From contig JARRQT010000010.1 of the NCBI GenBank assembly GCA_037381445.1, forward strand, positions 1-26,382: a DNA stretch of 26,382 nt. Reading direction: 5' to 3'. Of this stretch, positions 3,557 to 26,281 are shown in pieces. Every line of letters starts with the position of its first letter. Positions within the stretch are counted from its first letter, which is position 1. This DNA is from Calditrichia bacterium. Lineage in GTDB: Bacteria > Calditrichota > Calditrichia > RBG-13-44-9. The notes beneath the pieces were generated by a model. The model worked only from the letters and a program-made list of their open reading frames with translations. It did no database searches and was not told where the DNA came from. Made by a program: the position numbers and the translations under genes.

Positions 3557-3563
3557 CCAATCC

Positions 3564-7145: not shown

Positions 7146-7209
7146 TACTCCTTACCCTTTGAGCCTCTTGTTAATGATTTGCTGAATTATGAAATGCAGA
7201 TTTATAGAC

Positions 7210-9636
7210 TTAACGAATTAACATCATCTTTTTAATAAGAATATTTTGATCTGCCATCAATTTATAAAAGTAGATTCCGCTTGAGCAATCATCGCCACGT
7301 TCATTTTTCCCATCCCATTTCATGGCATGCTCACCTGGACTTTGGGTTCCTTTGAACAATACCCTGACTCTTGCTCCCAAAACATCATAAATTTCAAGAC
7401 TGATTTTGGAAGTTTGAGGCAGTCTATAGCGAATCAATGTCTCAGGATTAAATGGATTCGGAAAATTTTGCAGCAGCTCAAAATCGTTTGGCAGCACATT
7501 TGAGTTTTCTGCAACAATGGCAGATAGTTCATTCAGATTAATACGAAGTTCATAATTGCCCTCCTTGGTGTTACCCCGCCAGTATTCCATATTAAAGGAA
7601 GTCACCTCCAGAAATCCATAACCTATTTTTCCTTCATACTCCGCCCTCAGAATAATCACACCATTGGAGAAACCATATCCATGCTCAATTCTACCGGTTT
7701 TGCAGAAAGGACAGCGACCGAGTGCCACTCGTCCATTTTCATCTGCGCTTAAATATAAATCGGGTTCGTCATCATAAAATTTTCCGTACCATTCCCCGTC
7801 TTTGGGTCCCGCCTGATAAATTCTAACTCCCGCATTCGATAAAATATTGCCCTGAGTATCTTTTAGAGTCACCACATTCTCTTCCGGCAGATCCTGTAAA
7901 AATATGCCGATATTCCCGGGAGCATTATAATTTCCTTCAATAGCCCGGTGACCGACAATTAGGTTTAGGGCAGCTGCGCTATATTCATCGACATAGGTAT
8001 ATTGGCCATTCATTAATCCTTTATAATTTGCGGCATGCACAACATCGCCGGTAATTGGAAGGTAGGGAGTACCTGCGATTTGATACCCATTTTCCTCAAT
8101 AGCTACCGTATTACCCGATCCATTATCATGCACATTAAATCCGTACTGATCAATCAGGTACCTGGCGTGTCCGAGTTCATGGAGAAGGGAGCCTTCAAAA
8201 TAAAAGGGATTGTTGGTCGAAACATTTTTATGATCGGCATAAAAATTTCCATCCAGCAATGTGGTGGGGAAACCCCACTGTAAATCGATCGTCTTGTCAA
8301 GAAAATCCGGATCATTGGTAGCCAACCCGCCATTAAGGGGTAATGCATTATCCGGAACAATCGTAATTTTATCGAGACGAATGCGATCGAGTACGCCGTC
8401 AGGGGAATCCGAATAGATCGCGGCTTTGAACATTCCATTCCACATCAAAACATGCCGCTGAGCCCAGTCATCCCATGAATTAGAATGGATTCCCAAATCT
8501 TTTTGATACTGGTGGAAATAATCATATACGCTTTGTTCCACATAAAATCCTGCAGAAATGGCATTGGTATATATTGTCAAATCATTGTTTTCTTCTTCCT
8601 CTTCCGCCACAACATTTTCGGGATCAATAACAAATTTTAGCGTGTGTCTGTCAAAAGTCCACTGCCATGGATAATTAACTGCTACGGTATCCCCGGCCGG
8701 AATATCAACAGAAGATGAATCTACCAATGTTCCATCCAGGAACCACTTATATGGAATCTTTACCAAATTCGAATCAGACCAGTTCCTGATCACTGCCTGC
8801 CAGTAAACGGTACTTCCGACAGATGGCCATCCGGTAATCCAGGGAGCCTCACTGTCCCACACATAATCCTGGCGTGGCAACCGGCCAATATAACTAATAT
8901 CGAGGTCCATTCCCGGCTTAATATAAGGGTCTTCATTAACTTCCAATGAATGTGAACTATGAATCCCCTCGTCTGAGACAGAATAAACGATATATCCATA
9001 TTTTTCTGATGAAACGGCAGTACTATCAATAAAAAAATCAGTAGTTATATTAAAGCCAATCCGATAATAAACCATCCTGGGCAGACCACTAGACAGCGTA
9101 TCACTATAAACGCGACGATAAATTTCATATTTCTGGTTGCTTGCGCCACTCCAGGAAATAATACGATGGAAGGTAAGGCTATCAATCTGCAGTTTTAAAT
9201 TTTCAGGGGGATCAGGCAGATTAACACTTTTAAGGGTCAGCGTCTTAGGAAAAAAATACCAGGGAATCCCTAATACGCTATCATTAAGAATTCCCTGTTC
9301 ATGAGCGGCATTACAGGTGAACCTGACATGGACGCTATCACCTGTTTTTAATTTAGGATCAAAAAAATTCCCCAGCTCAATCCCAAATGTACCGTTGCCC
9401 GAAATATTAGGATCACTGCTATTTTTCCAACGGGGCGCATTCTCAATTAAGACCTGATCGCTGTCATTATTTAAATAAGCAGTGAATGTGGCCTCCGGTG
9501 ACGGGTGATAGCAATAATCCCCTGCCGAGTGTTTAACAAAATTTTTATAATATACGGAAATATCTTCTGCATCGCTTTGCGTATACACATTTATTGTAAA
9601 AAACAGAATCGTTAAAAAGGCCAACAAAAATCTCAT
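7210..9636 (-). CDS. Secreted metzincin-like metallopeptidase (shared N-module, FN3-like, CARDB, HELGH motif, T9SS/FlgD-Ig CTD)
   Basis: Signal peptide from MRFLL (ATG 9636; track starts at GTG 9645); CARDB-like HTLKFVIDPENVVAEEEEENN; LLHELGHARYLIDQY at 8167-8181 with downstream GLMNG (Met-turn-like); C-terminal QNFPNPFNPET…SGIYFYKL…KKMMLIR. Confidence 0.78.
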   Translation of the reverse strand: MRFLLAFLTILFFTINVYTQSDAEDISVYYKNFVKHSAGDYCYHPSPEATFTAYLNNDSDQVLIENAPRWKNSSDPNISGNGTFGIELGNFFDPKLKTGDSVHVRFTCNAAHEQGILNDSVLGIPWYFFPKTLTLKSVNLPDPPENLKLQIDSLTFHRIISWSGASNQKYEIYRRVYSDTLSSGLPRMVYYRIGFNITTDFFIDSTAVSSEKYGYIVYSVSDEGIHSSHSLEVNEDPYIKPGMDLDISYIGRLPRQDYVWDSEAPWITGWPSVGSTVYWQAVIRNWSDSNLVKIPYKWFLDGTLVDSSSVDIPAGDTVAVNYPWQWTFDRHTLKFVIDPENVVAEEEEENNDLTIYTNAISAGFYVEQSVYDYFHQYQKDLGIHSNSWDDWAQRHVLMWNGMFKAAIYSDSPDGVLDRIRLDKITIVPDNALPLNGGLATNDPDFLDKTIDLQWGFPTTLLDGNFYADHKNVSTNNPFYFEGSLLHELGHARYLIDQYGFNVHDNGSGNTVAIEENGYQIAGTPYLPITGDVVHAANYKGLMNGQYTYVDEYSAAALNLIVGHRAIEGNYNAPGNIGIFLQDLPEENVVTLKDTQGNILSNAGVRIYQAGPKDGEWYGKFYDDEPDLYLSADENGRVALGRCPFCKTGRIEHGYGFSNGVIILRAEYEGKIGYGFLEVTSFNMEYWRGNTKEGNYELRINLNELSAIVAENSNVLPNDFELLQNFPNPFNPETLIRYRLPQTSKISLEIYDVLGARVRVLFKGTQSPGEHAMKWDGKNERGDDCSSGIYFYKLMADQNILIKKMMLIR

Positions 9637-9656
9637 TATCACCAAATCTTGTTCGT

Positions 9657-10577
9657 TTAAAGAGAGAAAGATATTCCAAACCGATGCGCACCGCCCAAGA
9701 TACTGTAATCATTGTAGGAATAGTCAAATTCCAGAAGATAATTTGAAACACGCCAGTGCAGACCACCTCCAAAAGAATACTTTGTTACATCGTTATTCAG
9801 TTGATAACCGCCCCGCAGATAGATGGTTTTATTAAAATTCCACTCTGCCCCAACTTGACCTAATGGTTTGCCATCATTAGGCTTAATGGCTGTTAGGGAA
9901 ATGAGAAGTGTCTGCGATTCCTGCTGCAGGGCATTCATGGAAAGTCCGAATTGGAAATTTGTCGGCAGCGGATAAGATTCATTAACATATTTCACTTCCG
10001 AACCAAAATTTGCGATTTTCATTCCAAATCGGAATCCACGGAAATCTGTGGAATATAGCACCGCAATATCTCCCGCGATGGCATTGGCATCAAAGTCAGA
10101 ATAGAGAGACATATGGATGTAACTGATAGTACCTCCCATCGTCACTTTGTCTGTCAGAAATCTTGAATAAGAGAATCCATAACGGTAATTTCCAGAGTAA
10201 AAGGTTTCCCCGGTACCGTCGGGTTGAAGCGGGGTTCGCACTTTCATTTCATCTGTATATAGGGCTGTTACGGAGAGTCCAAAGGTACCCCAGATACCAA
10301 ATGTTCGGGCAGCGGCTGCGAACTCATGATTTATTCCGGCAAACCATGAGGTGTGCGTGAAGGCAAAATCAGTATTTGGTATTCTCGCCAAAGCTGCAGG
10401 ATTATAATAGGTGGCTTCCGCTCCGTCAGTAACCGAAATATAGGCATCCCCCATCGCAGCGGCTCGGGGGCTCACACTTATTCTTAAAAACTGACCATCT
10501 GTACTTCCCGGCCGTTCATACTGGGCCATTAATACAAACGGCACTAAGACGAACAATAGTACGAATTTCTTAATCAT
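9657..10577 (-). CDS. PorV/PorQ-family (UPF0164-like) outer-membrane beta-barrel
   Basis: QFLRISVSPRAAAMGDAY and YYNPAALA motifs, amphipathic beta strands, C-terminal HRFGISFSL. Start at MIKKF (10577) gives a clean signal peptide; the upstream ATG at 10616 is possible. Confidence 0.85.
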   Translation of the reverse strand: MIKKFVLLFVLVPFVLMAQYERPGSTDGQFLRISVSPRAAAMGDAYISVTDGAEATYYNPAALARIPNTDFAFTHTSWFAGINHEFAAAARTFGIWGTFGLSVTALYTDEMKVRTPLQPDGTGETFYSGNYRYGFSYSRFLTDKVTMGGTISYIHMSLYSDFDANAIAGDIAVLYSTDFRGFRFGMKIANFGSEVKYVNESYPLPTNFQFGLSMNALQQESQTLLISLTAIKPNDGKPLGQVGAEWNFNKTIYLRGGYQLNNDVTKYSFGGGLHWRVSNYLLEFDYSYNDYSILGGAHRFGISFSL

Positions 10578-10619
10578 ATCTAAATCCCAATTTTTATTGT
10601 TAAGCTCTTTTTTCATTTA

Positions 10620-12410
10620 TCACTTAATGACAACAAATTTACCTACCTGAACATCACCGGAACCCTCTGCCTGAACAGAAAAAAGATATATGCCGCTCGC
10701 AATAGCCTGGCCAACCGATGAAGTAAGATTCCAGTCTTCAAACCCGATTTCTGCATTATTATGATAAAGAGTCTGTATCAGGTCACCTGCCAGCGTGTAG
10801 ATTTTTATTGTGCATCTGCTTGGCAAATTAATGAATTGAATACGGCGATCCTGCTCCATCCAATATTGGCGCGTGCCTTCCGGCTTTTCCCACTGGGGAT
10901 TGTATTCATGGTATGCCACGTCCCCGCGATATGGATTCGGTACGACAGCAACTTTCCCAACTGTTTCCGGAGCCGCGGTCCCGGGAATAATCTTCCGCGC
11001 ATTCGCAGCAATACTGGATTCCTGAGAAGGGAAATCTGTGGCAGAATCCGGTTTTGAATATGCCGACACACTATAGTAGTACTCAAAGTTGTTGAGTAAG
11101 CCTGTATCCGTAAATTCCCAATCAAGGCCGGTATTGGGACCATATTTGTCATTCTTTATATCATATTCGCCCAATAAGGTCCACGGTCCCTGCGGGCTGG
11201 AAGTACTTTTATATAGCCGGTAACCCTCAAAAGGTTGCTCGGCATTATCACCCCGGTAAGGATCGAAGTAGGTTTCAGGATTTACATCACCTTCCTGCGA
11301 TTTCCAGCTTAATTTAACCTTATGATTGCCAATTTGAACCCTGAGTGGCGGTTTGGGAGGCGGAAAAGGAACTTTATATTCCCGCTCTTTTAGAAATTCC
11401 AGATAATCAGCATTTTTCATGACTTCATCTCTGCCCATTCCAAATACTTCAGCGATTTCAAAATGCAGCGTATCGCCCACAGCCACTGTCTCAAACGGAC
11501 CAAAAGCTACCGCCACATGGACTCTTTCGGGATCCGCCCTGTTTGCCATAATTTGTCCACTGCTCATGGCGACCTTATATCGCAAAGCATCATTTCCAAA
11601 ACCACTGAGATCTTCATGATCGTACCATTTAAATGTCCATTTCAGCGTGCTATCCTTGGGTGAAAGAAACTTGATGCCGATAGGGCTCTGAGTATTACCA
11701 TCGTTTCCACCAGGATTATCATCTCCGATGGCCATATGCTTGGTAGGATAAAAAAATGTAAGATCATCAATAAAATTATCCGCCACGTCATTATTGCCAA
11801 TCTCACCATGCAGCCAGAAAGCCACATATACATTCTTAAGGTCATTTTTCACAGGAATCACATCATAATTGAAGACGATGAACTCATCCAGAGGCGCCGA
11901 ACTCCAGGCAAAACTTCTCTGAATGACATCAAGATATAAAGGTTTATGCTTGTCGACAGTGAGAATATTGTAATCGCTGTATCGGCAAATAAAATCCTGA
12001 TCGGAAACGGCCGTATAATGCGGCCAATAGGGAATATCCAGAGTATCACCTTTCTTTGCTACCCAAATCGTATCCCATGGCTGTGCAGTGGGATAAAATT
12101 CTTCCGGGGTGAAATGGGTTTTGCTAACGGATACCAGGGTATCTCCCTTTGGATCTATTGCACCTATCCAGATTCCACCCTGATAAATATGTTCTTCATT
12201 GCTGCCGATCGGCATTTCAGAGTATATTAGGCCGGGATAACTAAGCTTCTGATCAGAATCATCCAGCGTGCCTATATTGGTTATAAGCTGTTTAACTTTG
12301 CCCACATTGTGCAATTTCCAATCCAATGTGGTAAGCTGGGCAAACAGTGGATTTATCATAAATGCAAACCCACCTAATATCAACCAGATCGCTAAAATTT
12401 TTCTTTTCAT
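10620..12410 (-). CDS. Secreted hypothetical protein, TBDR-associated family with FN3-like domain and VVPNPY-type C-terminal sorting-like domain (paralogue 2)
   Basis: Signal peptide LFA|Q; LDWKLHNVGKV; PPPKPPLRV; FEGYRLYKS; VAVVPNPY…IQFINLP…CTIKIYTLAGD…WNLTS…ASGIYLF…GKFVVIK. Aligns by eye over its whole length with 12486-14285. Confidence 0.8.
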   Translation of the reverse strand: MKRKILAIWLILGGFAFMINPLFAQLTTLDWKLHNVGKVKQLITNIGTLDDSDQKLSYPGLIYSEMPIGSNEEHIYQGGIWIGAIDPKGDTLVSVSKTHFTPEEFYPTAQPWDTIWVAKKGDTLDIPYWPHYTAVSDQDFICRYSDYNILTVDKHKPLYLDVIQRSFAWSSAPLDEFIVFNYDVIPVKNDLKNVYVAFWLHGEIGNNDVADNFIDDLTFFYPTKHMAIGDDNPGGNDGNTQSPIGIKFLSPKDSTLKWTFKWYDHEDLSGFGNDALRYKVAMSSGQIMANRADPERVHVAVAFGPFETVAVGDTLHFEIAEVFGMGRDEVMKNADYLEFLKEREYKVPFPPPKPPLRVQIGNHKVKLSWKSQEGDVNPETYFDPYRGDNAEQPFEGYRLYKSTSSPQGPWTLLGEYDIKNDKYGPNTGLDWEFTDTGLLNNFEYYYSVSAYSKPDSATDFPSQESSIAANARKIIPGTAAPETVGKVAVVPNPYRGDVAYHEYNPQWEKPEGTRQYWMEQDRRIQFINLPSRCTIKIYTLAGDLIQTLYHNNAEIGFEDWNLTSSVGQAIASGIYLFSVQAEGSGDVQVGKFVVIK

Positions 12411-12485
12411 ATATTTACCTGTTTCTTAAGTAGTGAATATTGCTATCACCTATGAAGCTAAGATTCGTAATACCGATTTAAATAA

Positions 12486-14285
12486 TTATTTAATAATTAC
12501 AAATTTACCAACCTGGGCCTGACTAGAGCTGTTATCTTCCACGGTGAACAAATAAATACCACTTGCCACAGCCTGCCCAACATATGAAGTAAGATTCCAA
12601 TCCTCATAACCTTTTTCGGGATCATTATGAATAATCGTATTCACCCAATCACCAGCCAGAGTATATATTTTAATGGTGCACGAAGCCGGCAAATTAATAA
12701 ATTGAATTCTACGGTCCTGCTCCATCCATTTATCTCGGGTGGCGTCAGGCTTTTCCCAGGGAGGATTATAAGAATCGTATGCAAAATCACCACGATACGG
12801 ATTAGGCACGACTGCAACCTGCCCCACTTTTGCGGGAGGCTCCGGCCCCGGTATTACTCTGACAGCATTGGCATTAAGGCTCGATTCTTGGGATGGGAAA
12901 CTTGACACCGTGTCTGGCTTGGAGAAGGCAGTTACTGTATAATAATAATCAAAATTATTAAGAAGTCCCAAATCTGCATATGTGGTATCCAACCCCGTAT
13001 TATATCCATATTCATTATCAGGAGTATCAAATTCTGCTAAGAGAGTCCAGGGACCTGTTGCACTTCGGGTGCTTTTATACACTCTATATCCTTCAAACGG
13101 CACTTTCATACTATCAGCACGATATGGATCAGTGTAGTGCTCAGGATCCGGATCCCCCGGATGGGGATTCCATTTGAGCCTGACATAGTGACTTGTCATA
13201 TCCACTCTTAATGGCGGTTTTGGAGGAGGAGAAGGGACTCTGAAATCATTCTCATATAACCAATCAAGTCTTTTGGCGTTTTTGAGCAGACCACTGAGAC
13301 CTTCACCCAGAACTTCACCAACAGCAAATTTTAATGTGTCTCCGACAGACAGATCAATAGGCCCGAATGATACTATAAACTGCGAGCCAACAGGTTCTTT
13401 TTGGTCTGTCATTATTTTATTTTCAGACATCTGAAGATATCTATCCCCATCTCTGCTGGGCGGAGCGCTTCCGCTGCCACCCTCATACCAATTAAAGGTC
13501 CATTTCAAAGAATTCTCATCGACATTCTTAGGAGGGAAAAGACGCATCCCAATCGGACTATAGGCATTTTCATCTGTACTACCCGGATAATCCATTGATA
13601 TACCCATATGCTGGTCGGGATAGTAAATAGAATAGTCATCCAGAGCAAATGACCATCCGCTGCCGCGATAGCCGACATTTCCATCCAGCCAATAGGCGAT
13701 ATAAACGTCTTTCAGGTCAGTTTTTTTGGCAATAACATAGAATTTGTAAATTATCATTTCATCCAGGGGACTGGAACTCCAGGCATGGCTCGTCTGAATT
13801 ACGTCAATATTCAAAGGCTTATGCTGCACCATATTCGTAACATTGTAATCACTATATCGGCAGACAAAATCCTGGTCCGAAATTCCAACATATTTGGGCC
13901 AATAAGGGATATCAACTGTATCACCTTTGTAGACAGTCCAAACAGTATCCCATGGTTGAGCACTGGGAAAGAACTCCTGGCTAGAATTCCAGCTCGTGGT
14001 AACCGATACAGCTGTATCGCTTCCCATAATAGCACCAACCCAAATTCCTCCTTCACCAACGTGTTCTTCAAAACTATTGGGTGGAAATTCACAATAGATC
14101 AGTCCCGTGAAGTCACCTAACAGATAACTTGTCGGCCAAAGACTTCCGAGATTTGAAACAAACTGTCTCACCTTTCCAACATCATGCATTTTCCAATCCA
14201 GGCTTACATTTTGCTGTGCAAACGCTGCGAAGGCAAAGATCAAAATAAAAAATATAATATTACTCTTTTTATGTACCACAGGCAT
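12486..14285 (-). CDS. Secreted hypothetical protein, TBDR-associated family with FN3-like domain and VVPNPY-type C-terminal sorting-like domain (paralogue 1)
   Basis: Start at MPVVHKK (14285, GAGG SD) preferred over 14348; signal peptide AFA|QQ; same motif series as 10620-12410. Confidence 0.8.
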   Translation of the reverse strand: MPVVHKKSNIIFFILIFAFAAFAQQNVSLDWKMHDVGKVRQFVSNLGSLWPTSYLLGDFTGLIYCEFPPNSFEEHVGEGGIWVGAIMGSDTAVSVTTSWNSSQEFFPSAQPWDTVWTVYKGDTVDIPYWPKYVGISDQDFVCRYSDYNVTNMVQHKPLNIDVIQTSHAWSSSPLDEMIIYKFYVIAKKTDLKDVYIAYWLDGNVGYRGSGWSFALDDYSIYYPDQHMGISMDYPGSTDENAYSPIGMRLFPPKNVDENSLKWTFNWYEGGSGSAPPSRDGDRYLQMSENKIMTDQKEPVGSQFIVSFGPIDLSVGDTLKFAVGEVLGEGLSGLLKNAKRLDWLYENDFRVPSPPPKPPLRVDMTSHYVRLKWNPHPGDPDPEHYTDPYRADSMKVPFEGYRVYKSTRSATGPWTLLAEFDTPDNEYGYNTGLDTTYADLGLLNNFDYYYTVTAFSKPDTVSSFPSQESSLNANAVRVIPGPEPPAKVGQVAVVPNPYRGDFAYDSYNPPWEKPDATRDKWMEQDRRIQFINLPASCTIKIYTLAGDWVNTIIHNDPEKGYEDWNLTSYVGQAVASGIYLFTVEDNSSSQAQVGKFVIIK

Positions 14286-14354
14286 TATTTCCTCAAATCC
14301 TTTAATAGTCTGATCTCTTTTGTATTCGTTCATCAAAAAATCATTCAATATTTT

Positions 14355-17186
14355 TTACCAGTTAATGCTAAGACCTAACCTGATGTCACGTCCCGATGCA
14401 AATTGTCTGGGATCCAGCTTTGTCAGCATATCATAATAGCCAATATAGCGATAAGTGCTATTGCTTATTAACTGGGGATCAAGATCTCCATATTTGAAAG
14501 GTTTGCCGGTTAATGTGTTAAATCCGTATGCAATCTGAACATTACGCTGGTTGAAGATATTTAATATGTCAGCAAAGACAGATAGGCCCAAATTCCCTAC
14601 ACCAAAAGTCTTTTTAATCTTGAGATCCGTTACCATGGTAGAAGGCCCGATTTTGGTATTTTCAGTCTTCTGCTGAACGACAGGATCAAGCGAGTAAGGC
14701 GTATAAGGCTGACCAGTAGAGAACCTGGAAAGAACCGTTGCATTCCAATTATCGGGTATGGTAATTCCAAAAATTTTGGGTGCGCGATGAGGTGGAATGG
14801 CAATGGTTCCCTGGAATATGACCTGATGCCGGATATCCCAGCTCAGCGCCCTCTCACGGATCGGATTAGGGAAGTCTGTTAGTGATCGAATATAGTTATC
14901 AAAGGCGGATGAGGAATAACCGGTCGCCCATTGGACAGTATATGTTAGATCTGTGGAAAAATAATGGGAATAACGTTTGTTTAATGAAAATTCCAATCCT
15001 CTTGCTCTTCCATAGCCTTTGTTATCATAAAGATATACTGGCAATCCCAAAGCAGCTCTTAATTGGGTTGTCTCCACCTGTTTGGATATATCTTTTGCAT
15101 AGCTCTTAATATCAAGCGCCCAATCAGTTGCCAACTGTCTCGTGAATCCGAATTCATAGAGAATGGTTTGTTCAAAATCCAAATGCGGATTACCCGTAAA
15201 TCCTCCCGTATAGGGATCGCGGTAAAAATATTGAAGCTCAGGCAATTGATTAAAGTGACCGTAAGAGAAGAAAACAACAGTTTTTTCCGAAATCGGAAAT
15301 GATATGCCAAAACGGGGACTGAATTTTAGTTTCAACCAGTTCCAATCTGCTTTCAGGCCGGTTGCAGACTCCCACTGTCTCTTCCAGTTATTGTTCATAA
15401 CTGTTGAACCTAAAGCAAGCCAGTCTAATCTTGCGCCTGCATTAATAATTAAGGTCTCTTTTTCAAATTTATCCTGGATATATGCCCCACCAATGATTGG
15501 ATAAGCATTGAATACCCACCGGTTTTGACCAAATTCCGGGTAGGGACCAATAGGAGCAACAAAAGTCTGCTCATTTTCAAATGCCGCTTTGCCATAATTG
15601 GATAAAGCAACGCCACCATCCTGAATATCAACATACTGGATATCGTTATACTTCATTTCGATACCGGTTTTCACAAGATGTTCAGGATGTATCTGGGAAG
15701 TAATATCTCCTTTAAAAGTATAGGTGGCCGTCGCATCATCACGCCATATATTATCATAGCTCAAAGGATCCACAAAACCATAGATGTCGGTTGTGGCAGG
15801 ACTGATCGTAGAGCGTATTGAATCGGGTGCACCGGAAAAAAGACTCTTATATGTCTGATAATCATAAACATTTCCATCTTTATAAAATCGCCAGAAATCA
15901 CCGGGATTTTTTCCATTCAAAGAGCCGGCATATTTAACACCCAGATATCCAAAATTAATATTATAGAATGTTGATTTTGAAAGCGTATGATTGATCCTGA
16001 AAATGAAATTTTGATTATTCCTGACATAATCTGCCATATGGTCGGGATAGTTTTTCCAGAGCCAGTCAAAATTGCTCCAATTATTCCAGGAACCATGATA
16101 ACTTAAATTAAGATTAAGCTTGTTGGAAACATTCCAGCCAATTTTAGCATTCAAATTGCCTGTATTATCCTGCTTCTCTTTTAAGTTCAAACCGAATAAG
16201 GAAAAAGTATCTCTCGTTCTGCTATTATTGTAGGGAGTATTGCTCAGCGTCCCGTTGCCTGAAAGAAAGAAATGGAGTTTGCCCGGTAAATGTATACCCA
16301 GCCCGGGCAATAAACGGCTGGAAATCGGATCGGGCCCCCCCAGATAGAAGGAGGTATATTGCATATCATAGGCGGTGTTGAAAAAATCATACTGAGAAGT
16401 TTTATATTCAATTCCGCCCTCATAATGATCACCGCCCGACCGTGTAGTGATATTTACCACACCCGATTGAGCCTGCCCGTATTCGGCATTGAATGCCCCG
16501 GTCAATAGCTCCATCTCCTGCACATCAACCACATTGAGGTTCAAAACATCCCGGCCTCCATAAATGGGATGGGTTACCGGCACCCCGTCTACCATATACA
16601 GGATTTCACCGCCGCGGCCGCCTCTGACATGGATATCTTTCAGACTTTCATCCCTGACCTGTAATTGAGCGCCGCCTTCGAGTTGAATCGATTGGGGGGC
16701 TGCGCTTGTAAATGCGCCTCCCTGAAGCATGAAAATATCCGCAGTCGATTCAAATCCAGGGGTCTCAGCAATTTCTTCGCGCGAGGTTACTTTTCTGGTG
16801 GAGGTCACATCCTTTTGGACAATGGGTGCCTTGGCGAAGACTTCAACAGCAGGACCTTCAATTGCGTTTGATTCCATTTTTATATCAACTCGCTGAGTCA
16901 GATCCACTTTCACGCGTACTTCGCGAACGGTCAGGGTATGATATCCGATATAGGAACACTCTAAGTCATATGTACCGGGCGGAACCTGCAATATGTAATA
17001 GAAACCTTCCTCATCGGTCGCGGCCCCAAGGGAGCTTCCCTTCACTACCACATTGACGCCAATTAGCGGGTCCCCCGTAGATTTATCGGTTACCCTTCCT
17101 GCAATTTTCCCCGTGTTTCCAGCAAAGAGCATCCGGGAAAAAATCAAGAATATCAGAAAAATCGATGAATATTTTAGACACCTCAT
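14355..17186 (-). CDS. TonB-dependent receptor with N-terminal carboxypeptidase-regulatory-like domain
   Basis: GKIAGRVTDKSTGDPLIGVNV…GAATDEEGFY…PPGTY; plug IHVRGGRGGEILYMVDGVPV…GAFNAEYGQAQSGVVNITT; barrel motifs FSPRFGISFP, FFSYGHFNQLP, GNPHLDFEQT; C-terminal Trp. Confidence 0.95.
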   Translation of the reverse strand: MRCLKYSSIFLIFLIFSRMLFAGNTGKIAGRVTDKSTGDPLIGVNVVVKGSSLGAATDEEGFYYILQVPPGTYDLECSYIGYHTLTVREVRVKVDLTQRVDIKMESNAIEGPAVEVFAKAPIVQKDVTSTRKVTSREEIAETPGFESTADIFMLQGGAFTSAAPQSIQLEGGAQLQVRDESLKDIHVRGGRGGEILYMVDGVPVTHPIYGGRDVLNLNVVDVQEMELLTGAFNAEYGQAQSGVVNITTRSGGDHYEGGIEYKTSQYDFFNTAYDMQYTSFYLGGPDPISSRLLPGLGIHLPGKLHFFLSGNGTLSNTPYNNSRTRDTFSLFGLNLKEKQDNTGNLNAKIGWNVSNKLNLNLSYHGSWNNWSNFDWLWKNYPDHMADYVRNNQNFIFRINHTLSKSTFYNINFGYLGVKYAGSLNGKNPGDFWRFYKDGNVYDYQTYKSLFSGAPDSIRSTISPATTDIYGFVDPLSYDNIWRDDATATYTFKGDITSQIHPEHLVKTGIEMKYNDIQYVDIQDGGVALSNYGKAAFENEQTFVAPIGPYPEFGQNRWVFNAYPIIGGAYIQDKFEKETLIINAGARLDWLALGSTVMNNNWKRQWESATGLKADWNWLKLKFSPRFGISFPISEKTVVFFSYGHFNQLPELQYFYRDPYTGGFTGNPHLDFEQTILYEFGFTRQLATDWALDIKSYAKDISKQVETTQLRAALGLPVYLYDNKGYGRARGLEFSLNKRYSHYFSTDLTYTVQWATGYSSSAFDNYIRSLTDFPNPIRERALSWDIRHQVIFQGTIAIPPHRAPKIFGITIPDNWNATVLSRFSTGQPYTPYSLDPVVQQKTENTKIGPSTMVTDLKIKKTFGVGNLGLSVFADILNIFNQRNVQIAYGFNTLTGKPFKYGDLDPQLISNSTYRYIGYYDMLTKLDPRQFASGRDIRLGLSINW

Positions 17187-17241
17187 TTAAAAACGCTCCT
17201 CATTTACATTATATAAAAATCACATCGACAAATTTCAGTCT

Positions 17242-18687
17242 TTAATATCCCAGACTCTTAAGCATTTCATTTGCCATTATTTGTGCATCACTTTCCCTAA
17301 TAAAAAACATTGGGAAACCGAGAACAATAGTATTAAAGCTGGTTCCATAATAGCGAATTCCTGTTGGCTCACCCCGCCATTTTGTACTACCGGTGATATC
17401 ATTGGCATATGTATAAATGACATCGGTAAAGCCCGCTCGCCTGGGCATGATGTTTATCTGAGAAAGCATGCTAAAGTATGGAAACTCTTTCAGCTTCTGT
17501 GGATCGATCTGAATGTCCGTGAAACCACTAAAGCCGGTGCATCCCGTAAAATCTGGCATGGATGAAGATTCATCCGCTGTTAATATATGGAGATAATCAT
17601 GGATGAATGTTCCCTCATCGAAGGTTTTAGGGAAGGATTCAGATTGTGCAAAGGATTTCAGAATTCTCCAGCCGCCCATGATGAAATCACCACCAACATT
17701 TAGATAGTCCTTGATGTCTTCAATGTTTGCTGGCAATTTATGAACATTTTGTGCATTACTGTACGGATTATCTGCATGCCAGATTACCAGTTTATAGCGC
17801 CCTAATACTGATTTGGGCGGCATGCCCTGTTTTTTGAAATCCCAGGATTCATTCGTTCCGAACATTCTGGCATAGAAGCTATCCACATCTGCATCTTTAT
17901 AAACGCCTAATCCGCCGGAAAATAATGATTCATCCGTTTCATCAATAATAAGAATTCTTTGATCGAAAGTGGGTCTAATCAGATTAACCGTCTTTACATC
18001 ACCTATGGGATCAACAAGATTAGTATTGTCCCGGCAGGTAACATAGATTTTGTGACTTCCATCCAATGTTTCAAAATAGCTCGGATCAATGAATAAAGTG
18101 GTATCGGTTGTCCAGTTCCATTCCCCATCATCAACTTTCCATGCGTATTCTATCACCTCGCCATCCTGGTCGGTTGCGTGATATGTCAAAGGTACACCCT
18201 GCCACCAGTCTGTTGTTTGATCAATGATGAAAAATTGTTGTTCCTCTTTGGGAGAAATGATCTCGGTCTGTGGAAAAATAGTCTGAACTGTGTAAAATTC
18301 TTTTTCGGCTGGCGAGGGATCAGCGTCCCCTTTATCATCTATTGCCCGCACCTGGAATCTTTGATGGTTGAGGAGGTCACTTGACTCAAAGGGAATAGTA
18401 ATACTTGTCTGGGTGGTATTTACCCACTCCTGCACCACGGAGTCACCGTTGACCATATGTTTGGTTATGTAACGGTATTGGTAACCGGAAATGAAACCGT
18501 CATTATCTTCCCCGTCCCAATGAAGAGTGACCAGTGCAAAAAGAGTATCATTTACAACCGGAATATTAGCCAGAGTAGTATTGGGCGGATCATTTGGACT
18601 GGCAATCTCTGCTTTTCTCTCACAGGAAAGCAATACCAATAATAAGATTGTTATACTTATTGTTAGAACGACGCTTAGCTTTCTCAT
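17242..18687 (-). CDS. Lipoprotein with two Ig-like domains and a C-terminal alpha/beta domain
   Basis: Lipobox LLLVLLS|C; repeated Ig-like motifs WDGEDNDGFISGYQY…FQVRAIDDKGDADPSPA and YHATDQDGEVIEYAWKVD…DNTNLVDP; C-terminal RILIIDET…YKLVIWHAD…DYLNVGG (class I glutamine amidotransferase-like fold, inferred). Confidence 0.75.
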   Translation of the reverse strand: MRKLSVVLTISITILLLVLLSCERKAEIASPNDPPNTTLANIPVVNDTLFALVTLHWDGEDNDGFISGYQYRYITKHMVNGDSVVQEWVNTTQTSITIPFESSDLLNHQRFQVRAIDDKGDADPSPAEKEFYTVQTIFPQTEIISPKEEQQFFIIDQTTDWWQGVPLTYHATDQDGEVIEYAWKVDDGEWNWTTDTTLFIDPSYFETLDGSHKIYVTCRDNTNLVDPIGDVKTVNLIRPTFDQRILIIDETDESLFSGGLGVYKDADVDSFYARMFGTNESWDFKKQGMPPKSVLGRYKLVIWHADNPYSNAQNVHKLPANIEDIKDYLNVGGDFIMGGWRILKSFAQSESFPKTFDEGTFIHDYLHILTADESSSMPDFTGCTGFSGFTDIQIDPQKLKEFPYFSMLSQINIMPRRAGFTDVIYTYANDITGSTKWRGEPTGIRYYGTSFNTIVLGFPMFFIRESDAQIMANEMLKSLGY

Positions 18688-18717
18688 TTTAGACCTTAAA
18701 TTATTTTAAATCATATA

Positions 18718-19320
18718 TTAATAGTATTTTACATCAGCGATCTGCATCTGCGGTTCAAAAATATATTTGTCTTTATATCTGGAAACGGACTTAAATGGGC
18801 TGACTCTGATATTAACCTCCGTTACCTTATTTTCAAAAACTTCAAAATCGTGTTTTAGATTTACAAAATAGTTTGTCGGCGTTTCGACACTTATCATGTC
18901 AAAATTTTTGAGCTTGAGATAGTCTGAATCTATTCCAAATTGAACCTCATCATATTTTTGCGGAGGGACATAGGATTCAAATATCGTAAACTTGCTGTAT
19001 TGGTTGTTTTCACGAACAATTAAATTGTAATATAATTCTTCCTGGCTATTACTTGCCAGTGTTGGATAAAGTGTTGCATATGCAGTGTCGTGATATACTT
19101 TTCCCTGATATACTTTAATTCTGAAGCCATCCTTGTCGGACACATGAAGCGTATCGGTTACAATAATAATTGATGTATCTGCCGGGTCAGATTCCAGGGT
19201 TATTCTGAGAATTCCTGGCGTGGGAGAGCTCTCAACTCCTGTGTTACATCCCAGGTATATAAATATGAATGCCCCCAAGACAAACAATATTAAATATTTA
19301 AAACCAATTTTTCTGGTCAT
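18718..19320 (-). CDS. Lipoprotein, DUF4382-like
   Basis: Lipobox FIYLG|C; GILRITLESDP near the N-terminus and FKSV…YIFEP at the C-terminus resemble DUF4382-type lipoproteins. Confidence 0.6.
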   Translation of the reverse strand: MTRKIGFKYLILFVLGAFIFIYLGCNTGVESSPTPGILRITLESDPADTSIIIVTDTLHVSDKDGFRIKVYQGKVYHDTAYATLYPTLASNSQEELYYNLIVRENNQYSKFTIFESYVPPQKYDEVQFGIDSDYLKLKNFDMISVETPTNYFVNLKHDFEVFENKVTEVNIRVSPFKSVSRYKDKYIFEPQMQIADVKYY

Positions 19321-19406: not shown

Positions 19407-21539
19407 CTATTTCATCAACATCATTTTCTTCACCCGGGTGAAGTTTTTGGTTTGCAGCTTGTAGAAATAAACGCCACTGGCTACGGCATTACCTATTTCA
19501 TTGGTTCCGTTCCAGAGTGTAACATGTTTCCCGGCAGTCACGGTTGCATTTACCAGAGTTTTCACATGTCTTCCCAGCAAATCATAGATAATAATCTTGA
19601 CTTTTTCGGTCTTAGGAACAGAATAACGAATCTCGGTTACCGGGTTAAAGGGGTTCGGGAAATTCTGACTTAAATCATATGTTAAGACCACATTCGATTT
19701 CTTGTCCCCAATAGCAGTGATGTTTTCGAGCGGCAGATTCGCAAAAGGATAGTTGTAAATTTTTACGTTATCAAAATTCCCCTTGAAAAATGGCGGATAG
19801 GTCCCTGTATCCGGGGAAGCCGCTTTTCCGATTCTTAACGGCTGGAAACCTTCAACAACGGGATTATCGAAACCGGCATACTTTTGCTCAATAATTTCGT
19901 CATTCTCATCCAGGAGACGCAATACCGCATAGTAATTCACAGTATCTCCCGGTTCAGCGGCCCTGACTTCGTACATGACGTGATACCACTTGTGCATTTC
20001 CACAGAATCATCCAGGGTAATTACCACGCTGCCATCCGTACCTGCATACAGCCTGCTGTCCGGATCAAAACGAATTTGGTAATTGTTATCGGACCAGGAA
20101 GTTGCGTTTCTCGGCCGATTCAGGATGCGACAATAGAGACCATCTTCCGGATTCGTATAGTCCGGGTACATCCAGAAATCCACCAGGAATTCTTTTGCAG
20201 CCAAAAATGGTCCGGGAACTTCCAGGAAGCTGGAATCACCTTCCAGATAAATCGAATAGTCGCTGCCTGCTGCGGCGTTCGATGAGTATTCAGGTGTTCC
20301 ATACATCGTTACAGAATTGGCATAGTCACTATAGTCCACAGGGGTTCCACTGCCCTCTTCAAAAGTTAAATCCAATGCCTGGGTTACGGGCTGATAAACA
20401 CCAAAGCTATAATAATCTGCAGATTGCCATCCAGCATCCTTGGGCGAATTAAAAGTTAATCCATTATTATCGATTGCTTCAATGTAATACTGTACCACAG
20501 TTCCCAATGGTTGTTTCGGGATGACTGCCATCATGGAGTCCCCGCTAACTGTTGTCATATCAACATCTGTCCAGGCATTTCCGCCATCGATAGAGTAATA
20601 CAGTTTTGCGCTCTGAATGGAAGTACTTGCAAACAGGGTAAAAATATTTGCTCCCACTTCATAATCAGGCGCTTCAGTGGTTTGGTTAGAGAGCGAAGTA
20701 ACATTCTTAACAATGGGCGGAATTGGCATTTCACGGACCACATTACTGATGCGGACTTCATCTACAAAGCCGTCAAGGAATGAATCTTCACCCCCACCGG
20801 CATAGCCAATATGAACAGGTTGATTGGTGGTTATTGGCGTGGGATCGGCAGCACCGAAACTGAGGTAATCAGACACGCTGAATGATGCCAGCTCAATTTC
20901 ACCACTGGTGTCATTATACTTGTGAATAACCGTCATTAGCAGGTGCCTGTTAGTATCGCGAATGAACGCCATGTGGTACCATTTTCCAACTTCCATAAGA
21001 TTGCTTGGAGTATTGGCCTGGGGCCACTGATCCTGAGAAGCGGCCATATATCCGCAACTGAACAATCTATTATCGCCCCACATTTCGACGAAATAATTTG
21101 GCTGCCAGAATACTTCATCCCCGGTCTTGATGACCAGACGCGGCACCCAACGCCAATCGCTGGAACCGGTTCCGAAGGTAAATATGTTGATCCAGCCTTC
21201 AATCGTCCAATCACCAGTCAGATCCAGATAAGAAGTATCGTCAACTGTAACGTAAGCTGAGTCGGATTTTGAATCGTTCTGGATTCTGAGACATTGTCCC
21301 ATATTCGGTACTGAATTCGGCAAATAGAAAAAGCTTGATTCGTTGCCATGCATTACACCATCTTTTGAGAACTGGGAAACATTGGACATATCCCCGTCAA
21401 AATGCAACAGCATCATGGTATTATCATCAGGAGTGTACGGACCACCAACCGGATTTTGTTGAGCGAAGGCAAAACCTACAACCAATACCATGAACAAGAT
21501 TCCAAGTCGGCTTACCCATGACCATAACGGACTCTTCAT
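19407..21539 (-). CDS. Secreted protein with two LamG/concanavalin-A-like domains, a central Ig-like domain and a T9SS/FlgD-Ig CTD
   Basis: Start MKSPLWSW (21539, SD ATGGAGGT) preferred over 21620; signal peptide AFA|QQ; LamG motifs LLHFDG…WTIEGWI…KWYHMAF…GFVDEVRISN and LTFEEG…VDFWMYP…KWYHV…GNFDNVKIYN; C-terminal QNFPNPFNPVTEI…SGVYFYKL…KKMMLMK. Confidence 0.85.
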   Translation of the reverse strand: MKSPLWSWVSRLGILFMVLVVGFAFAQQNPVGGPYTPDDNTMMLLHFDGDMSNVSQFSKDGVMHGNESSFFYLPNSVPNMGQCLRIQNDSKSDSAYVTVDDTSYLDLTGDWTIEGWINIFTFGTGSSDWRWVPRLVIKTGDEVFWQPNYFVEMWGDNRLFSCGYMAASQDQWPQANTPSNLMEVGKWYHMAFIRDTNRHLLMTVIHKYNDTSGEIELASFSVSDYLSFGAADPTPITTNQPVHIGYAGGGEDSFLDGFVDEVRISNVVREMPIPPIVKNVTSLSNQTTEAPDYEVGANIFTLFASTSIQSAKLYYSIDGGNAWTDVDMTTVSGDSMMAVIPKQPLGTVVQYYIEAIDNNGLTFNSPKDAGWQSADYYSFGVYQPVTQALDLTFEEGSGTPVDYSDYANSVTMYGTPEYSSNAAAGSDYSIYLEGDSSFLEVPGPFLAAKEFLVDFWMYPDYTNPEDGLYCRILNRPRNATSWSDNNYQIRFDPDSRLYAGTDGSVVITLDDSVEMHKWYHVMYEVRAAEPGDTVNYYAVLRLLDENDEIIEQKYAGFDNPVVEGFQPLRIGKAASPDTGTYPPFFKGNFDNVKIYNYPFANLPLENITAIGDKKSNVVLTYDLSQNFPNPFNPVTEIRYSVPKTEKVKIIIYDLLGRHVKTLVNATVTAGKHVTLWNGTNEIGNAVASGVYFYKLQTKNFTRVKKMMLMK

Positions 21540-21685
21540 AACGACCTCCATTAGTTTGTTATTAATTAGTTTAGTAAACAGAAAACCAGCTACAGAATTC
21601 CTTTTCGTTCTTCTCCTCATTTCTGTTACTGATTAAAACTTCCACTCCCTTACCTGTTTAGAACAAAAACATACCTCTGATGCAA

Positions 21686-22888
21686 CTAAACTTTTTCTAG
21701 ATTCACCTCCTTTCCGGAAACCTTATCATTAGTCTTTATGGAACTTTGAATTGAAGTGCCTGCCTCAATTTTTGTAACATAAATTTTAGGGTTGACATTT
21801 AGTTTTTTAATAAATACAGGAGTAATTTCTTCAATAAAATTATTTAATGCGTCTTCTTTAACCAGGTTGATGGTACAGCCACCAAAACCGGCACCCATCA
21901 TCCTTGCTCCCAACACTCCATTTATTTTCCGGGCGGATTCCACCAAAATATCCAATTCTGTGCTGCTGACTTCATAATCATTTTTCAGGCCTTCATGCGA
22001 TGCAAGCATTTTCTGTCCAAATGATTGAAAATCATTGCGTTCCAGATCAGAGCAGGCTTGAACAACCCTATCATTTTCTTTCACAACATATTCACAACGT
22101 TTGTAAATCAGGGGATCAAATTCTTTTTTGTGAGCATAGAGAAGATCGACAGTAACGTCGCGCAGGCTATTAATGCGGGGATAAATCTTCTTCAATAAAT
22201 GCACACCCGACTCACATTGTTTTCGGCGCACATTATATTCTGAACCGGCTAATTCTCTCCTTACCTGAGTATCACATAGGACTATTCTTAAATCATCACG
22301 CTCAAAAGGATAAAGCTCATAGTCCAACGAACGACAGTCTAATTTAAGCACTTTTTTCGATTGTCCAAATATATTAATGAACTGATCCATAATTCCGCAT
22401 TGAACACCAACAAATTGATTTTCCGCAGCTTGAGCCATTTTTACCAAATTAATTTTTTCAAGTTTTAAATTGTAAAGCTCAGAGAGTGCAAAAATTAGCC
22501 CACCCTCAATGGCTGCTGAAGAAGACATACCAGATGCTATGGGGATATCACCACCGAAAACGCAATTAAAGCCTGATATCTCAAATTCGTTTTTGGTTAG
22601 CTGTTCTACAATCCCCAGGAGATAATTAGGCCACCCTTTTCCGGACTTTTGAATATTAGTTACACTTCCATCAAAATATTCATTAAAATCCTTTGAATAA
22701 ATTTTAATCATTCCGTCATTTCTTTTTGAAATGGCAAAATAAATAGCCTTATTCACGGCAGCAGGTAGCACAAATCCTTCATTATAATCTGTATGTTCAC
22801 CAATTAAATTAACCCGACCTGGTGATCTTACCAATAATGGTTCGGTCTTATATATTTCTTCAAATTTCTTTTTAATGATATCCAGCAT
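21686..22888 (-). CDS. galK: Galactokinase
   Basis: SPGRVNLIGEHTDYNEGFVLP, IPIASGMSSSAA, CGIMDQF, EYNVRRKQCE, GARMMGAGFGGC. ATG at 22888 or TTG at 22903. Confidence 0.97.
   Translation of the reverse strand: MLDIIKKKFEEIYKTEPLLVRSPGRVNLIGEHTDYNEGFVLPAAVNKAIYFAISKRNDGMIKIYSKDFNEYFDGSVTNIQKSGKGWPNYLLGIVEQLTKNEFEISGFNCVFGGDIPIASGMSSSAAIEGGLIFALSELYNLKLEKINLVKMAQAAENQFVGVQCGIMDQFINIFGQSKKVLKLDCRSLDYELYPFERDDLRIVLCDTQVRRELAGSEYNVRRKQCESGVHLLKKIYPRINSLRDVTVDLLYAHKKEFDPLIYKRCEYVVKENDRVVQACSDLERNDFQSFGQKMLASHEGLKNDYEVSSTELDILVESARKINGVLGARMMGAGFGGCTINLVKEDALNNFIEEITPVFIKKLNVNPKIYVTKIEAGTSIQSSIKTNDKVSGKEVNLEKV
21703..21714 (-). promoter_or_regulatory. Extended Shine-Dalgarno-like element GAAAGGAGGTGA (copy 2), within the galK C-terminal tail and upstream of the LamG gene
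   Basis: + strand tcacctcctttc, identical to 498-509; no ATG at normal SD spacing downstream. Confidence 0.55.
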
Positions 22889-22920
22889 CTTTTCTATTTC
22901 CAATCTGCATATGGTCTAAT

Positions 22921-23142
22921 TCACACTTTCGCTTTTCTGCTGATGAGAAAGAATATCAGGCCCACCACGGCCATCAGGCCGCCCCACCAGGCGTCCGGGT
23001 AATAGCCCGAGAGCACCTGCACCCGCTCGGTGCCGGTAAACAGGTGATACAACCCGGTCCCGAAGATGATGGCTCCCATGGCCAGCAGCACCAGCCCCAC
23101 GAAATACCAGATCGGTTTCATTCCCTTCTGTTCCTCTGTCAT
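22921..23142 (-). CDS. Small two-TM membrane protein associated with the SSS transporter
   Basis: MKPIWYFVGLVLLAMGAIIFGTG…WWGGLMAVVGLIFF; GGGGAG SD before ATG 23142; same GC-rich composition as the symporter. Confidence 0.8.
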   Translation of the reverse strand: MTEEQKGMKPIWYFVGLVLLAMGAIIFGTGLYHLFTGTERVQVLSGYYPDAWWGGLMAVVGLIFFLISRKAKV

Positions 23143-23158
23143 CACGGACTCCCCTCTC

Positions 23159-24820: not shown

Positions 24821-24835
24821 GTGACTCCCTGTCAT

Positions 24836-25852
24836 TTACTCTTTAATATCAACATTTGACCAGAATTGAGGGCGACCTTTCATTAATGTCATCTTTATGC
24901 TCCATTTTTTTCCCTCACCAGCCAAAATCTCTGCATATTCATTTCGATTTATTGCTTCCTTCAATGAGTCAGGACGACCGCTTGCGGGCTCTAATCCAAC
25001 TGTTAAATGTTTTTCCTCATTATTAACCGGCCATCCCCCATAACAGAGCCAGATACCTAAATAGGGATTTTCAGCCGGATCAAAATGAAATAGCAAATGT
25101 TCGTCCGTATCAGGGTGATAAATACCTGCCACTCCCTTATTCAGACTGCCTGTAAAACACTTGAGGGCTTTTCCAAATTCCTTAGATTGGACTTTAGAAT
25201 AATCGACCATTGTATTTCCGCTTCCTATAACTGGCCAGGAGAGTTCGTCACCAAATCCGCCCAATTCCGCATCCGAGGCCCAATTCAAAAATACCTTTTC
25301 GATCTCCTTGTCCAAAACCAGCCTGGCCCCAGCCTCTACTTTCAATAAGGGATGAGCAGACCAAATATATTTAAAAGGGTGATCAGAATAGTTTTTCAGA
25401 TGATAATCAATAAGCACATGATTATCGAAAAGTTTAATGTGCTTGATAAAGCGATATTGAAATTTTATTCCATTCGCTGTGAGTATTAATTGTTCACCAT
25501 CAATATGATGATGCCAGGACAAGGCCCATAATTCCCCATGATCGGGAAAAATGATATTATCTCCACCTCTCAGCTCTGCCAGCTGAGGATGTTCAGACGG
25601 CTCAATAGTCGGGAAACACTCATCAAAACCACTGGTATCATATTCTTCAAAATTAGCGCCATAGTAAGCACGCTTGTAGAATTGCTCTGGATTCTGAGGC
25701 TCTAACAGATATTGTCGCCCTGTCTCTTTTAAAGTCAATTCTATCATTTTTCCACCAATTTCAGGAAGAAAAACAACTCGAATCTTATCGTTCTCCAGTG
25801 AAACATGAATTAAATCATTCCTGGTAAATTCCTTCACAACGCCCTGTGTCAT
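24836..25852 (-). CDS. Galactose mutarotase-like (aldose 1-epimerase superfamily) protein
   Basis: LENDKIRVVFLPEIGGK, GFDECFPT, PDHGELW, WSAHPLL, GLEP, containing the His/His/Glu residues characteristic of the fold. ATG 25852 preferred over TTG 25894. Confidence 0.8.
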   Translation of the reverse strand: MTQGVVKEFTRNDLIHVSLENDKIRVVFLPEIGGKMIELTLKETGRQYLLEPQNPEQFYKRAYYGANFEEYDTSGFDECFPTIEPSEHPQLAELRGGDNIIFPDHGELWALSWHHHIDGEQLILTANGIKFQYRFIKHIKLFDNHVLIDYHLKNYSDHPFKYIWSAHPLLKVEAGARLVLDKEIEKVFLNWASDAELGGFGDELSWPVIGSGNTMVDYSKVQSKEFGKALKCFTGSLNKGVAGIYHPDTDEHLLFHFDPAENPYLGIWLCYGGWPVNNEEKHLTVGLEPASGRPDSLKEAINRNEYAEILAGEGKKWSIKMTLMKGRPQFWSNVDIKE

Positions 25853-26281
25853 GCAAAATCCGATCTCTTTTTTTCCAGAAAAACTATCAATCAACTTTAA
25901 ATTTAATCAAAACCAATCTTATGAACCATCCATCCATTCAACTCAGCATCTATTACAAGCAAATTGCCATTTTTGACCAACTCGTGTACCATCGATAGGC
26001 TGAAACAATAATAATTCCGCTAATTCTGTTTCATTCAGCAATTCCCCTATGCATTCTCATTTTATTGCAGGCTTAGCCTTCACAAGGCTGGTCAATCTAA
26101 AATTGGCCTATTGCACCCTTCCAACCAGAATAGTAAAGAGATGCAGTATTCCCGGACGCATCTACAACCAATAACACACCATTTACACCAGCAATAAAAA
26201 CAAACGCTTCAGGGCAACCTCCTCATTTTTTGAATAAAAACTCTTTCAGGTCCGTTTTCTTGTAAGCACTCAAGATTTAAT

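Follow-up and report, generated by a model that had tools for sequence, protein, structure and literature searches.

A SusD-less cassette of TonB-dependent transporter, CTD-bearing proteins and a dedicated PorV-family barrel in Calditrichota and allied phyla

In a 26,382-nucleotide stretch of DNA from a Calditrichia bacterium (contig JARRQT010000010.1; hereafter the window), six open reading frames (ORFs) at 9657-19320, all on the minus strand with intergenic gaps of 30-75 bases, encode two lipoproteins, a TonB-dependent transporter (TBDT), two paralogous secreted proteins that we call X, and a barrel of the PorV/PorQ family. The core of this block, in which the TBDT is followed by X and then by the barrel, is a real and strongly conserved cassette. 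It is not a member of the SusC/SusD systems, and it most likely functions like a utilisome. On balance, we favor the reading that X, held by its private barrel, is an exchangeable capture subunit of the TBDT, which would make this a utilisome-like import cassette without SusD. The observations behind this reading are the gene linkage, the predicted folds, the subtype structure of X, and the absence of any SusD match in the genome. An initial annotation, made from the sequence without database searches, had placed a contiguous, co-oriented block of these six genes at these coordinates, and the ORFs, the lipobox cysteines and the Pfam matches bear this out.

Conservation and copy number of the cassette

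Scanning GTDB with an X profile yielded 240 confirmed stretches, of which the best 80 were kept, giving 60 loci. (These are the closest relatives, chosen on X alone, with flanks limited to 10 kb; a locus "with room" is one whose contig extends far enough to hold the neighboring gene.) The loci are labeled Calditrichota, KSB1, Ignavibacteria, Fidelibacterota/Marinimicrobia, and one Rhodothermales; the labels of related loci include the cultured species Ignavibacterium album and Melioribacter roseus. In all 56 loci with room, the gene directly upstream of X encodes the TBDT; a PorV-family gene lies directly downstream of X in 52 of 52, and the gene for the 481-amino-acid (481-aa) lipoprotein lies ahead of the TBDT gene, also in 52 of 52. 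The 200-aa lipoprotein gene was present in 47 of 47. The gene just upstream of the block, at 19407-21620, codes for a secreted protein that combines two LamG/ConA-like domains with a generic type-A C-terminal domain (CTD) of the T9SS (type IX secretion system); of 44 loci with room, 43 have this gene, which belongs to the conserved unit. The gene order, whose conservation elsewhere the initial annotation had left to be checked, is held across phyla in these 60 loci. The cargo downstream of the cassette varies between loci, with one or both of the genes for HEXXH-containing CTD proteins in 31 of the 60; galK is in 10 of the 60. Two loci (L052 and L076) are on contigs labeled Archaeoglobus and Spirochaetota; their near-identical X copies are nested among Calditrichota/KSB1 rows in the tree, and these contigs are probably misbinned.

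The cassette is the standard design of the source genome (an assembly that is 91.85% complete) and not a one-off. Indeed, 24 PorV-family genes in this genome exceed the family cut-off, and 17 of them sit in TBDT-X-PorV cassettes. The order is kept in 16 of these 17 (one with the gene for a 238-aa protein inserted) and rearranged in one. The X proteins of the other cassettes have 664-1209 residues and are homologous in the head, FN3 domain and tail, so that one scaffold is common to all 17 cassettes, next to differing cargo. All 17 have X and a PorV-family barrel, and only 2 of the 17 have a detectable homologue of the 481-aa lipoprotein. The SusD family PF07980 had no match in this genome; the Bacteroides thetaiotaomicron control was positive. 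On two contigs (C44, 4946-8826, and C118, 2953-6058), the X genes of cassettes are each split into two ORFs by a frameshift or sequencing error. The rearranged cassette (L099:454-11275, contig C48) encodes X together with a CTD protein that contains an ExeM/NucH-like nuclease stretch, a 481-type lipoprotein, the TBDT, the PorV-family barrel and an NHL lipoprotein; this suggests that the cassette may import nucleic-acid fragments too.

In three single-contig genomes of the phylum, a PorV-family gene lies directly after the X tail in 36 of 46 cases; 41 of the 46 X tails are within 10 kb of a PorV-family gene and 5 are not. Across 56 genomes of the phylum, the X profile matches 55, many via the tail only, and SusD matches occur in 21, with 1-3 copies each. 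Searches turned up no fused forms, which is weak evidence: among 6330 candidates there were 9 long X relatives, all matching short stretches, and among 7998 long PorV candidates there were none. We found no description of the cassette in the full-text literature, judging by titles and the starts of abstracts among the matches listed; subscription journals are mostly outside that literature, as are supplements. Similarly, by a term search, the main text of the Caldithrix abyssi genome paper (PMC5317091) does not contain "SusD", "type IX" or "T9SS".

The initial annotation had proposed an alternative architecture for polysaccharide utilization loci (PULs). The conserved order, the dedicated barrel and the lack of SusD agree with this proposal, which overlooked the 17 copies and the likeness of the 481-aa lipoprotein to a surface glycan-binding protein (SGBP).

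The X proteins, the barrel and their partners

The two X proteins of the window are 55% identical over 578 residues and are thus paralogues of about 600 aa, as first described. X consists of a mutarotase-like β-supersandwich head and an FN3 domain, as predicted models indicate, and a distinct CTD subtype (VVPNPY-type). The twins match no Pfam family, the Atlas names no family for X, and the X profile finds nothing among PDB sequences at E ≤ 1. The best fold matches of the X model are the N-terminal sandwiches of glycoside hydrolase (GH) enzymes of families GH15, GH65, GH94 and GH116 (these lists are dominated by the head domain). X shares its fold with aldose 1-epimerase and GH supersandwich enzymes at 8-12% identity, and unlike the GH15/GH65/GH94/GH116 enzymes the predicted model contains no helical catalytic barrel. 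X is not SusD: the predicted models of X and of the 481-aa lipoprotein lack TPR helical repeats, and Pfam, model, PDB and structure comparisons support the earlier view that the twins are not homologous to SusD and do not fall into any named enzyme family.

The tail of X was harder to place. The twins have no match at E ≤ 0.01 to TIGR04183 or PF18962, the type-A CTD models, although three neighboring proteins do match. The last 73 residues weakly match the C-terminal model of PorZ, and profile-profile alignment (hhalign) indicates homology of the X tail to type-A CTDs (98.3%, 64 columns). When 18 X tails were compared with 135 generic type-A tails from this genome, they formed a separate CTD class. 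The description of the twins as CTD proteins therefore stands as distant homology to the type-A CTD and not as a match to its standard models.

We built a FastTree phylogeny of 97 X copies and one outgroup, leaving one long row (L055) unassigned. It contains three clades, A, B and C, with 41, 39 and 16 rows and SH-like supports of 98, 100 and 99 (from FastTree only). Every clade covers several phyla, and by this sequence evidence the subtypes appear to be ancient; a recent tandem duplication as the origin of the twins was rejected because each clade spans several phyla. The window pair is A plus B. In the 43 loci bounded by both a TBDT and a PorV gene, the subtype content was AB in 15, CA in 12, B in 9, CAB in 4, BA in 2 and A in 1. 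There are thus one to three X copies per locus, and never the same subtype twice; the "twin" arrangement holds for the window and is not the general rule. We also rejected an obligate A/B heterodimer because of the loci with B alone (9), A alone (1) or C plus A (12).

The subtypes differ in the head. Identity within and between subtypes is 0.61 and 0.46 for the head, 0.65 and 0.60 for FN3, and 0.74 and 0.73 for the CTD, and of 17 subtype-fixed positions, the head has 16 and the CTD has none. The fixed residues of subtype B in the window protein are H99, H265, R296 and H298. Some fixed positions swap chemistry between subtypes: W/H/E at 99, D/H/N at 201 and Q/H/K at 298. We also considered distant relatives of X (101 were given, 76 aligned well enough, and 2 were set aside as close, leaving 74). 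Across these 74, positions 76, 99, 265, 291, 296 and 298 are hypervariable and aromatic or polar; D139, D146, H155, P157, W169 and G304-P305 are kept. A variable head on a constant tail is what one would expect if interchangeable heads of differing specificity shared an anchor. The conserved Asp and His residues of the head also make an enzymatic function possible.

The barrel passes the PorV/PorQ family model (NF033709, 189.5 bits versus a cut-off of 90) and is under both equivalog cut-offs (NF033710, 68.8 versus 250; NF033711, 93.1 versus 220), so that the label "PorV-like" given to it at first is right for the family and not for either equivalog. It is not of the PorP/SprF family (TIGR03519, 16 bits versus 90.55). 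Its profile matches the solved PorV structure 6h3i_F (E = 1.3e-13), which is the sole significant match to a solved structure. A housekeeping PorV equivalog is on a separate contig, C46 (271.1 bits versus a cut-off of 250), and because of this the window barrel is a dedicated paralogue, as the initial annotation had supposed. (On C46, at L097:5653-9854, the gene after the housekeeping PorV encodes an inactivated M6-like metalloprotease that is T9SS-dependent, exceeds the cut-off of NF052323 and has a tail with a weak match to PorZ.)

The TBDT scores 90 bits against the SusC/RagA model TIGR04056 (cut-off 368.25), with its best stretch at residues 27-263, and by this cut-off it would not be classed as a SusC. 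No SusD Pfam model matches any protein of the window, which upholds the observation that no SusD accompanies the receptor, nor any of the homologues of the 481-aa lipoprotein (46) and the 200-aa lipoprotein (41). In the 200-aa family, the lipobox cysteine C25 is invariant in 41 rows, 13 of the 41 members match DUF4382, and the Atlas structure neighbors (among rows meeting the naming bar) are in DUF4382 clusters with TM up to 0.80. In the 481-aa family, the lipobox cysteine C22 is kept in at least 90% of 46 rows, 4 of the 46 members weakly match DUF4960, and the profile finds nothing among PDB sequences at E ≤ 1. W282, W303 and W340 are invariant. The domain plan of the 481-aa lipoprotein, two Ig-like domains and a ThuA-like C-terminal domain, is that of the levan SGBP Bt1761, and by this analogy it could itself be the partner of the TBDT.

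Proposed mechanism and alternative explanations

Known T9SS proteins suggest how X might be held. According to two reports, PorU and PorZ are anchored on PorV and PorQ (PMC12365241) and retain their CTDs (PMC11285876); likewise, type-B CTD proteins use cognate and often co-encoded shuttles, and several substrates can share one (PMC12618676). We propose that Sec would bring X to the periplasm and that its special CTD would then take it across the outer membrane through the SprA translocon. By analogy with PorZ on PorQ, the co-encoded barrel would quite probably take the CTD of X and keep it uncleaved, so that X is retained at the surface. The supersandwich head, on an FN3 stalk, would probably bind ligand without catalysis, with A, B and C as interchangeable specificities that share the barrel and the TBDT. 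The head, acting as a lid or as a neighbor within one complex, might then, with chances that we judge to be even, pass the ligand on to the TBDT, aided by the SGBP-like 481-aa lipoprotein. The lid model is plausible.

The secretion genes only partly fit this proposal. SprA and PorU pass their cut-offs in this genome, which also has the housekeeping PorV, and all 24 near-complete genomes of the phylum contain SprA_N. However, the PorM/GldM model TIGR03517 has no match in this genome or in five carrier genomes (very divergent homologues are possible); as a control, it is over the cut-off in 9 of 41 genomes of a sample from another phylum. PF12081, a model without a positive control, is over the cut-off in none of 56 phylum genomes. 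GldL and GldN have no match in this genome, with their controls silent as well, and GldK gives only a 20-bit fragment against a cut-off of 350. Because we did not detect PorK/L/M/N, X would have to be exported by a T9SS that is either reduced or divergent. The initial annotation had named a lack of the core genes sprA and porK/L/M/N as grounds for doubting its proposal; sprA, porU and porV are present and porK/L/M/N were not detected, so that this doubt stands by half.

Two other contigs carry T9SS-like genes. In one run on contig C16 (L101:114-13397) are genes for a 2113-aa protein of Ig repeats that ends in a CTD-like stretch, for a fusion of a PorV-family barrel with an FlgD-like domain, for a 1020-aa TPR protein with a weak PorW/SprE match, and then for ExbB/TolQ, ExbD and TonB. 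The last three are a candidate TonB-type energizer beside T9SS-like genes in a genome without PorK/L/M/N matches. On contig C128 (L100:3-7717), the gene for a PorV-TPR fusion shares a run with those for a CTD-like protein and a PP2C/anti-sigma regulator; the three single-contig genomes have PorV-family matches in frames of similar length to this fusion (635-647 aa).

The strongest alternative is that X on its private barrel never contacts the TBDT and is an accessory surface binder, with the lipoproteins, above all the 481-aa one, as the true partners. The constant place of the 481-aa lipoprotein gene ahead of the TBDT (52 of 52 loci with room) fits this idea, as does the levan SGBP of the same plan, which touches SusC via its first Ig-like domain (10.1101/2022.08.15.503959). 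But a homologue of this lipoprotein is found in just 2 of 17 cassettes, while X and the barrel are in all of them. Furthermore, paralogue distances of X tails and TBDT barrels are correlated (Spearman 0.70, 16 cassettes), although co-duplication alone can yield such a correlation, and we do not take these Mantel correlations as proof of co-evolution. We consider this alternative unlikely.

Less likely still, X could belong to an unnamed family of surface enzymes (epimerases, lyases or hydrolases, for instance) whose site lies in the supersandwich, with each subtype acting on a different linkage; the conserved Asp and His residues would have a place there. In the GH15, GH65, GH94 and GH116 families, the catalytic domain is the helical barrel, which is absent from the mostly-β model of X. 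Also, the subtype-fixed residues at 99, 201 and 298 change chemistry between subtypes, and one scaffold serves beside differing cargo in all 17 cassettes.

It is improbable that the TBDT and the PorV-like barrel are instead a private export or display route for X, energized by TonB for want of the PorLM motor. Such a route would resemble the Myxococcus Oar/PopC case, and it would suit both the failure to detect GldK/L/M/N and the strict linkage of the TBDT, X and barrel genes. However, SprA is in all 24 near-complete genomes, the 135 generic CTD proteins of this genome have no such transporter of their own, and the catabolic neighbors (galK, galT, galM, GH97, GH27/36-like and GH127) indicate import. 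Finally, we give little credence to the small barrel being a FadL-like channel for a small hydrophobic solute, unrelated to the retention of X: it has a weak UPF0164 match and two other PorV-family paralogues in this genome have weak FadL/Toluene_X matches, but PorV is its only significant solved-structure match, its gene follows the X tail in 36 of 46 cases, and its paralogue distances correlate with those of the X tails (Spearman 0.64).

The favored reading, X as a capture subunit on its own barrel, can be compared with three known systems. Like SusC/SusD PULs and utilisomes (such as the levan utilisome, PDB 8AA2), the cassette has a TBDT with an N-terminal CarboxypepD_reg domain, glycan-catabolic neighbors and many paralogues per genome, and the levan utilisome also has the Bt1761 type of lipoprotein. 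In contrast, the cassette lacks SusD and its TBDT is far under the SusC cut-off; the SusC/SusD lid is a lipid-anchored TPR protein, whereas the constant partner here is a CTD-bearing β protein with its own barrel. With PorZ-PorQ and PorU-PorV, the cassette shares a PorV/PorQ-family barrel next to a protein with a tail weakly similar to the PorZ C-terminus, and surface retention via an uncleaved CTD is the proposed common mechanism. Those pairs are single-copy sorting machinery, whereas here there are 17 paralogous pairs, each next to a TBDT, and the head of X is unrelated to PorZ outside the tail. The type-B CTD and PorP/SprF system of Flavobacterium johnsoniae also has a special CTD class and a dedicated, often co-encoded barrel, and several of its substrates can share one shuttle, as we propose for the X subtypes; it differs in using a PorP/SprF barrel and not one of the PorV/PorQ family, and the cargo of the cassette is no adhesin and is transporter-linked.

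Neighboring genes, substrate and significance

The six-ORF block sits within a longer run from galK to GH97 (Table 1).

Table 1. Protein-coding features of the window
Feature	Position	Strand	Matches
Galactokinase, sodium:solute symporter (SSF), and a 352-aa ORF	21686..25894	-	weak DUF5107 (352-aa ORF)
LamG-CTD secreted protein, 737-aa ORF	19407..21620	-	Pfam Laminin_G_3 x2, Por_Secre_tail
Lipoprotein, 200 aa, DUF4382-like β protein	18718..19320	-	
Lipoprotein, 481 aa, two Ig/FN3-like domains and ThuA-like C-terminal domain; candidate surface glycan-binding protein	17242..18687	-	
TBDT, 943 aa	14355..17186	-	Pfam CarboxypepD_reg, Plug, OMP_b-brl_4
X protein subtype A, ORF 620 aa; likely start ATG at 14285 (599 aa)	12486..14348	-	
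X protein subtype B, 596 aa; architecture as subtype A	10620..12410	-	
Dedicated PorV/PorQ-family barrel, ORF 319 aa; likely start ATG at 10577 (306 aa)	9657..10616	-	
Two secreted type-A CTD proteins, 811 and 927 aa, HEXXH motifs	4362..9645	-	CTD models
GH97 glycoside hydrolase, nearest retaining alpha-galactosidases	587..2572	-	Pfam GH97

The sugar genes of the window are galK, the SSF symporter gene and the GH97 gene (whose product scores 570.5 bits against NF053844, under the cut-off of 800). Galactokinase, the symporter and the 352-aa ORF make up the part of the locus that serves the cytoplasm and inner membrane. In related loci there are also galT (8), galM (4), LacI (6), DUF2961 (12), MGH1-like (14), GH27/36-like (1) and GH127 (1); each cluster was labeled by a single representative, and of 40 representatives 26 were scanned. 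Carbohydrate-active and sugar-catabolic genes are thus co-located with the cassette, as in a PUL. The HEXXH motif is kept in 28 of 28 full-length homologues of the downstream CTD proteins, and the 811- and 927-aa proteins are likely to be zinc metallopeptidases. Our best guess for the substrate is a galactose-bearing glycoprotein or glycopeptide. In the wider proposal, which we put at an even chance, it would be a galactose-bearing glycoconjugate, for example a glycoprotein that the HEXXH proteins would cleave before alpha-galactosidases and the Leloir pathway complete its breakdown.

Downstream of the cassette, at 2666-4283, are genes for a NicO/RcnA-like His-rich membrane protein (in 8 of 60 loci) and an unannotated 239-aa secreted protein (in 10 of 60), which might supply metal to the HEXXH proteins. 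A role of the cassette in metal uptake, suggested by the His-rich subtype B and the NicO neighbor, was left as a minor possibility because NicO is in so few loci. Across the symporter gene, at 23001-25000, the GC content is 0.53-0.58 versus about 0.40 on both sides, so this is possibly an acquired gene or an assembly join. No RNA holder is listed for the block, which says nothing about its expression. Rfam gave no matches, and promoter-like sites (55, versus 44.4 in shuffled sequence, sd 6.9) and terminator-like sites (19 versus 14.5, sd 4.5) are near the shuffled level.

Calditrichota, KSB1, Ignavibacteria and allied groups break down polymers in sediments and hot springs, and PUL predictors rely on SusC/SusD. 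A three-gene marker of TBDT, X and barrel would render the uptake loci of these phyla countable and substrate-assignable. Many "PorV/PorQ family" paralogues would gain a role, a further CTD class would be defined, and a direct question would be raised: how SprA is energized without PorLM. More tentatively, the three genes may be a second machine for outer-membrane uptake, one that was built independently and serves as the principal one in several Bacteroidota-allied phyla; its lid would be exported by a T9SS without the PorLM motor, clip onto its own barrel and be swappable among ancient subtypes. The locus contributes the three ancient X subtypes and the SGBP-like lipoprotein, and with a common tail and few differing head residues among A, B and C, it is well suited to testing these ideas.

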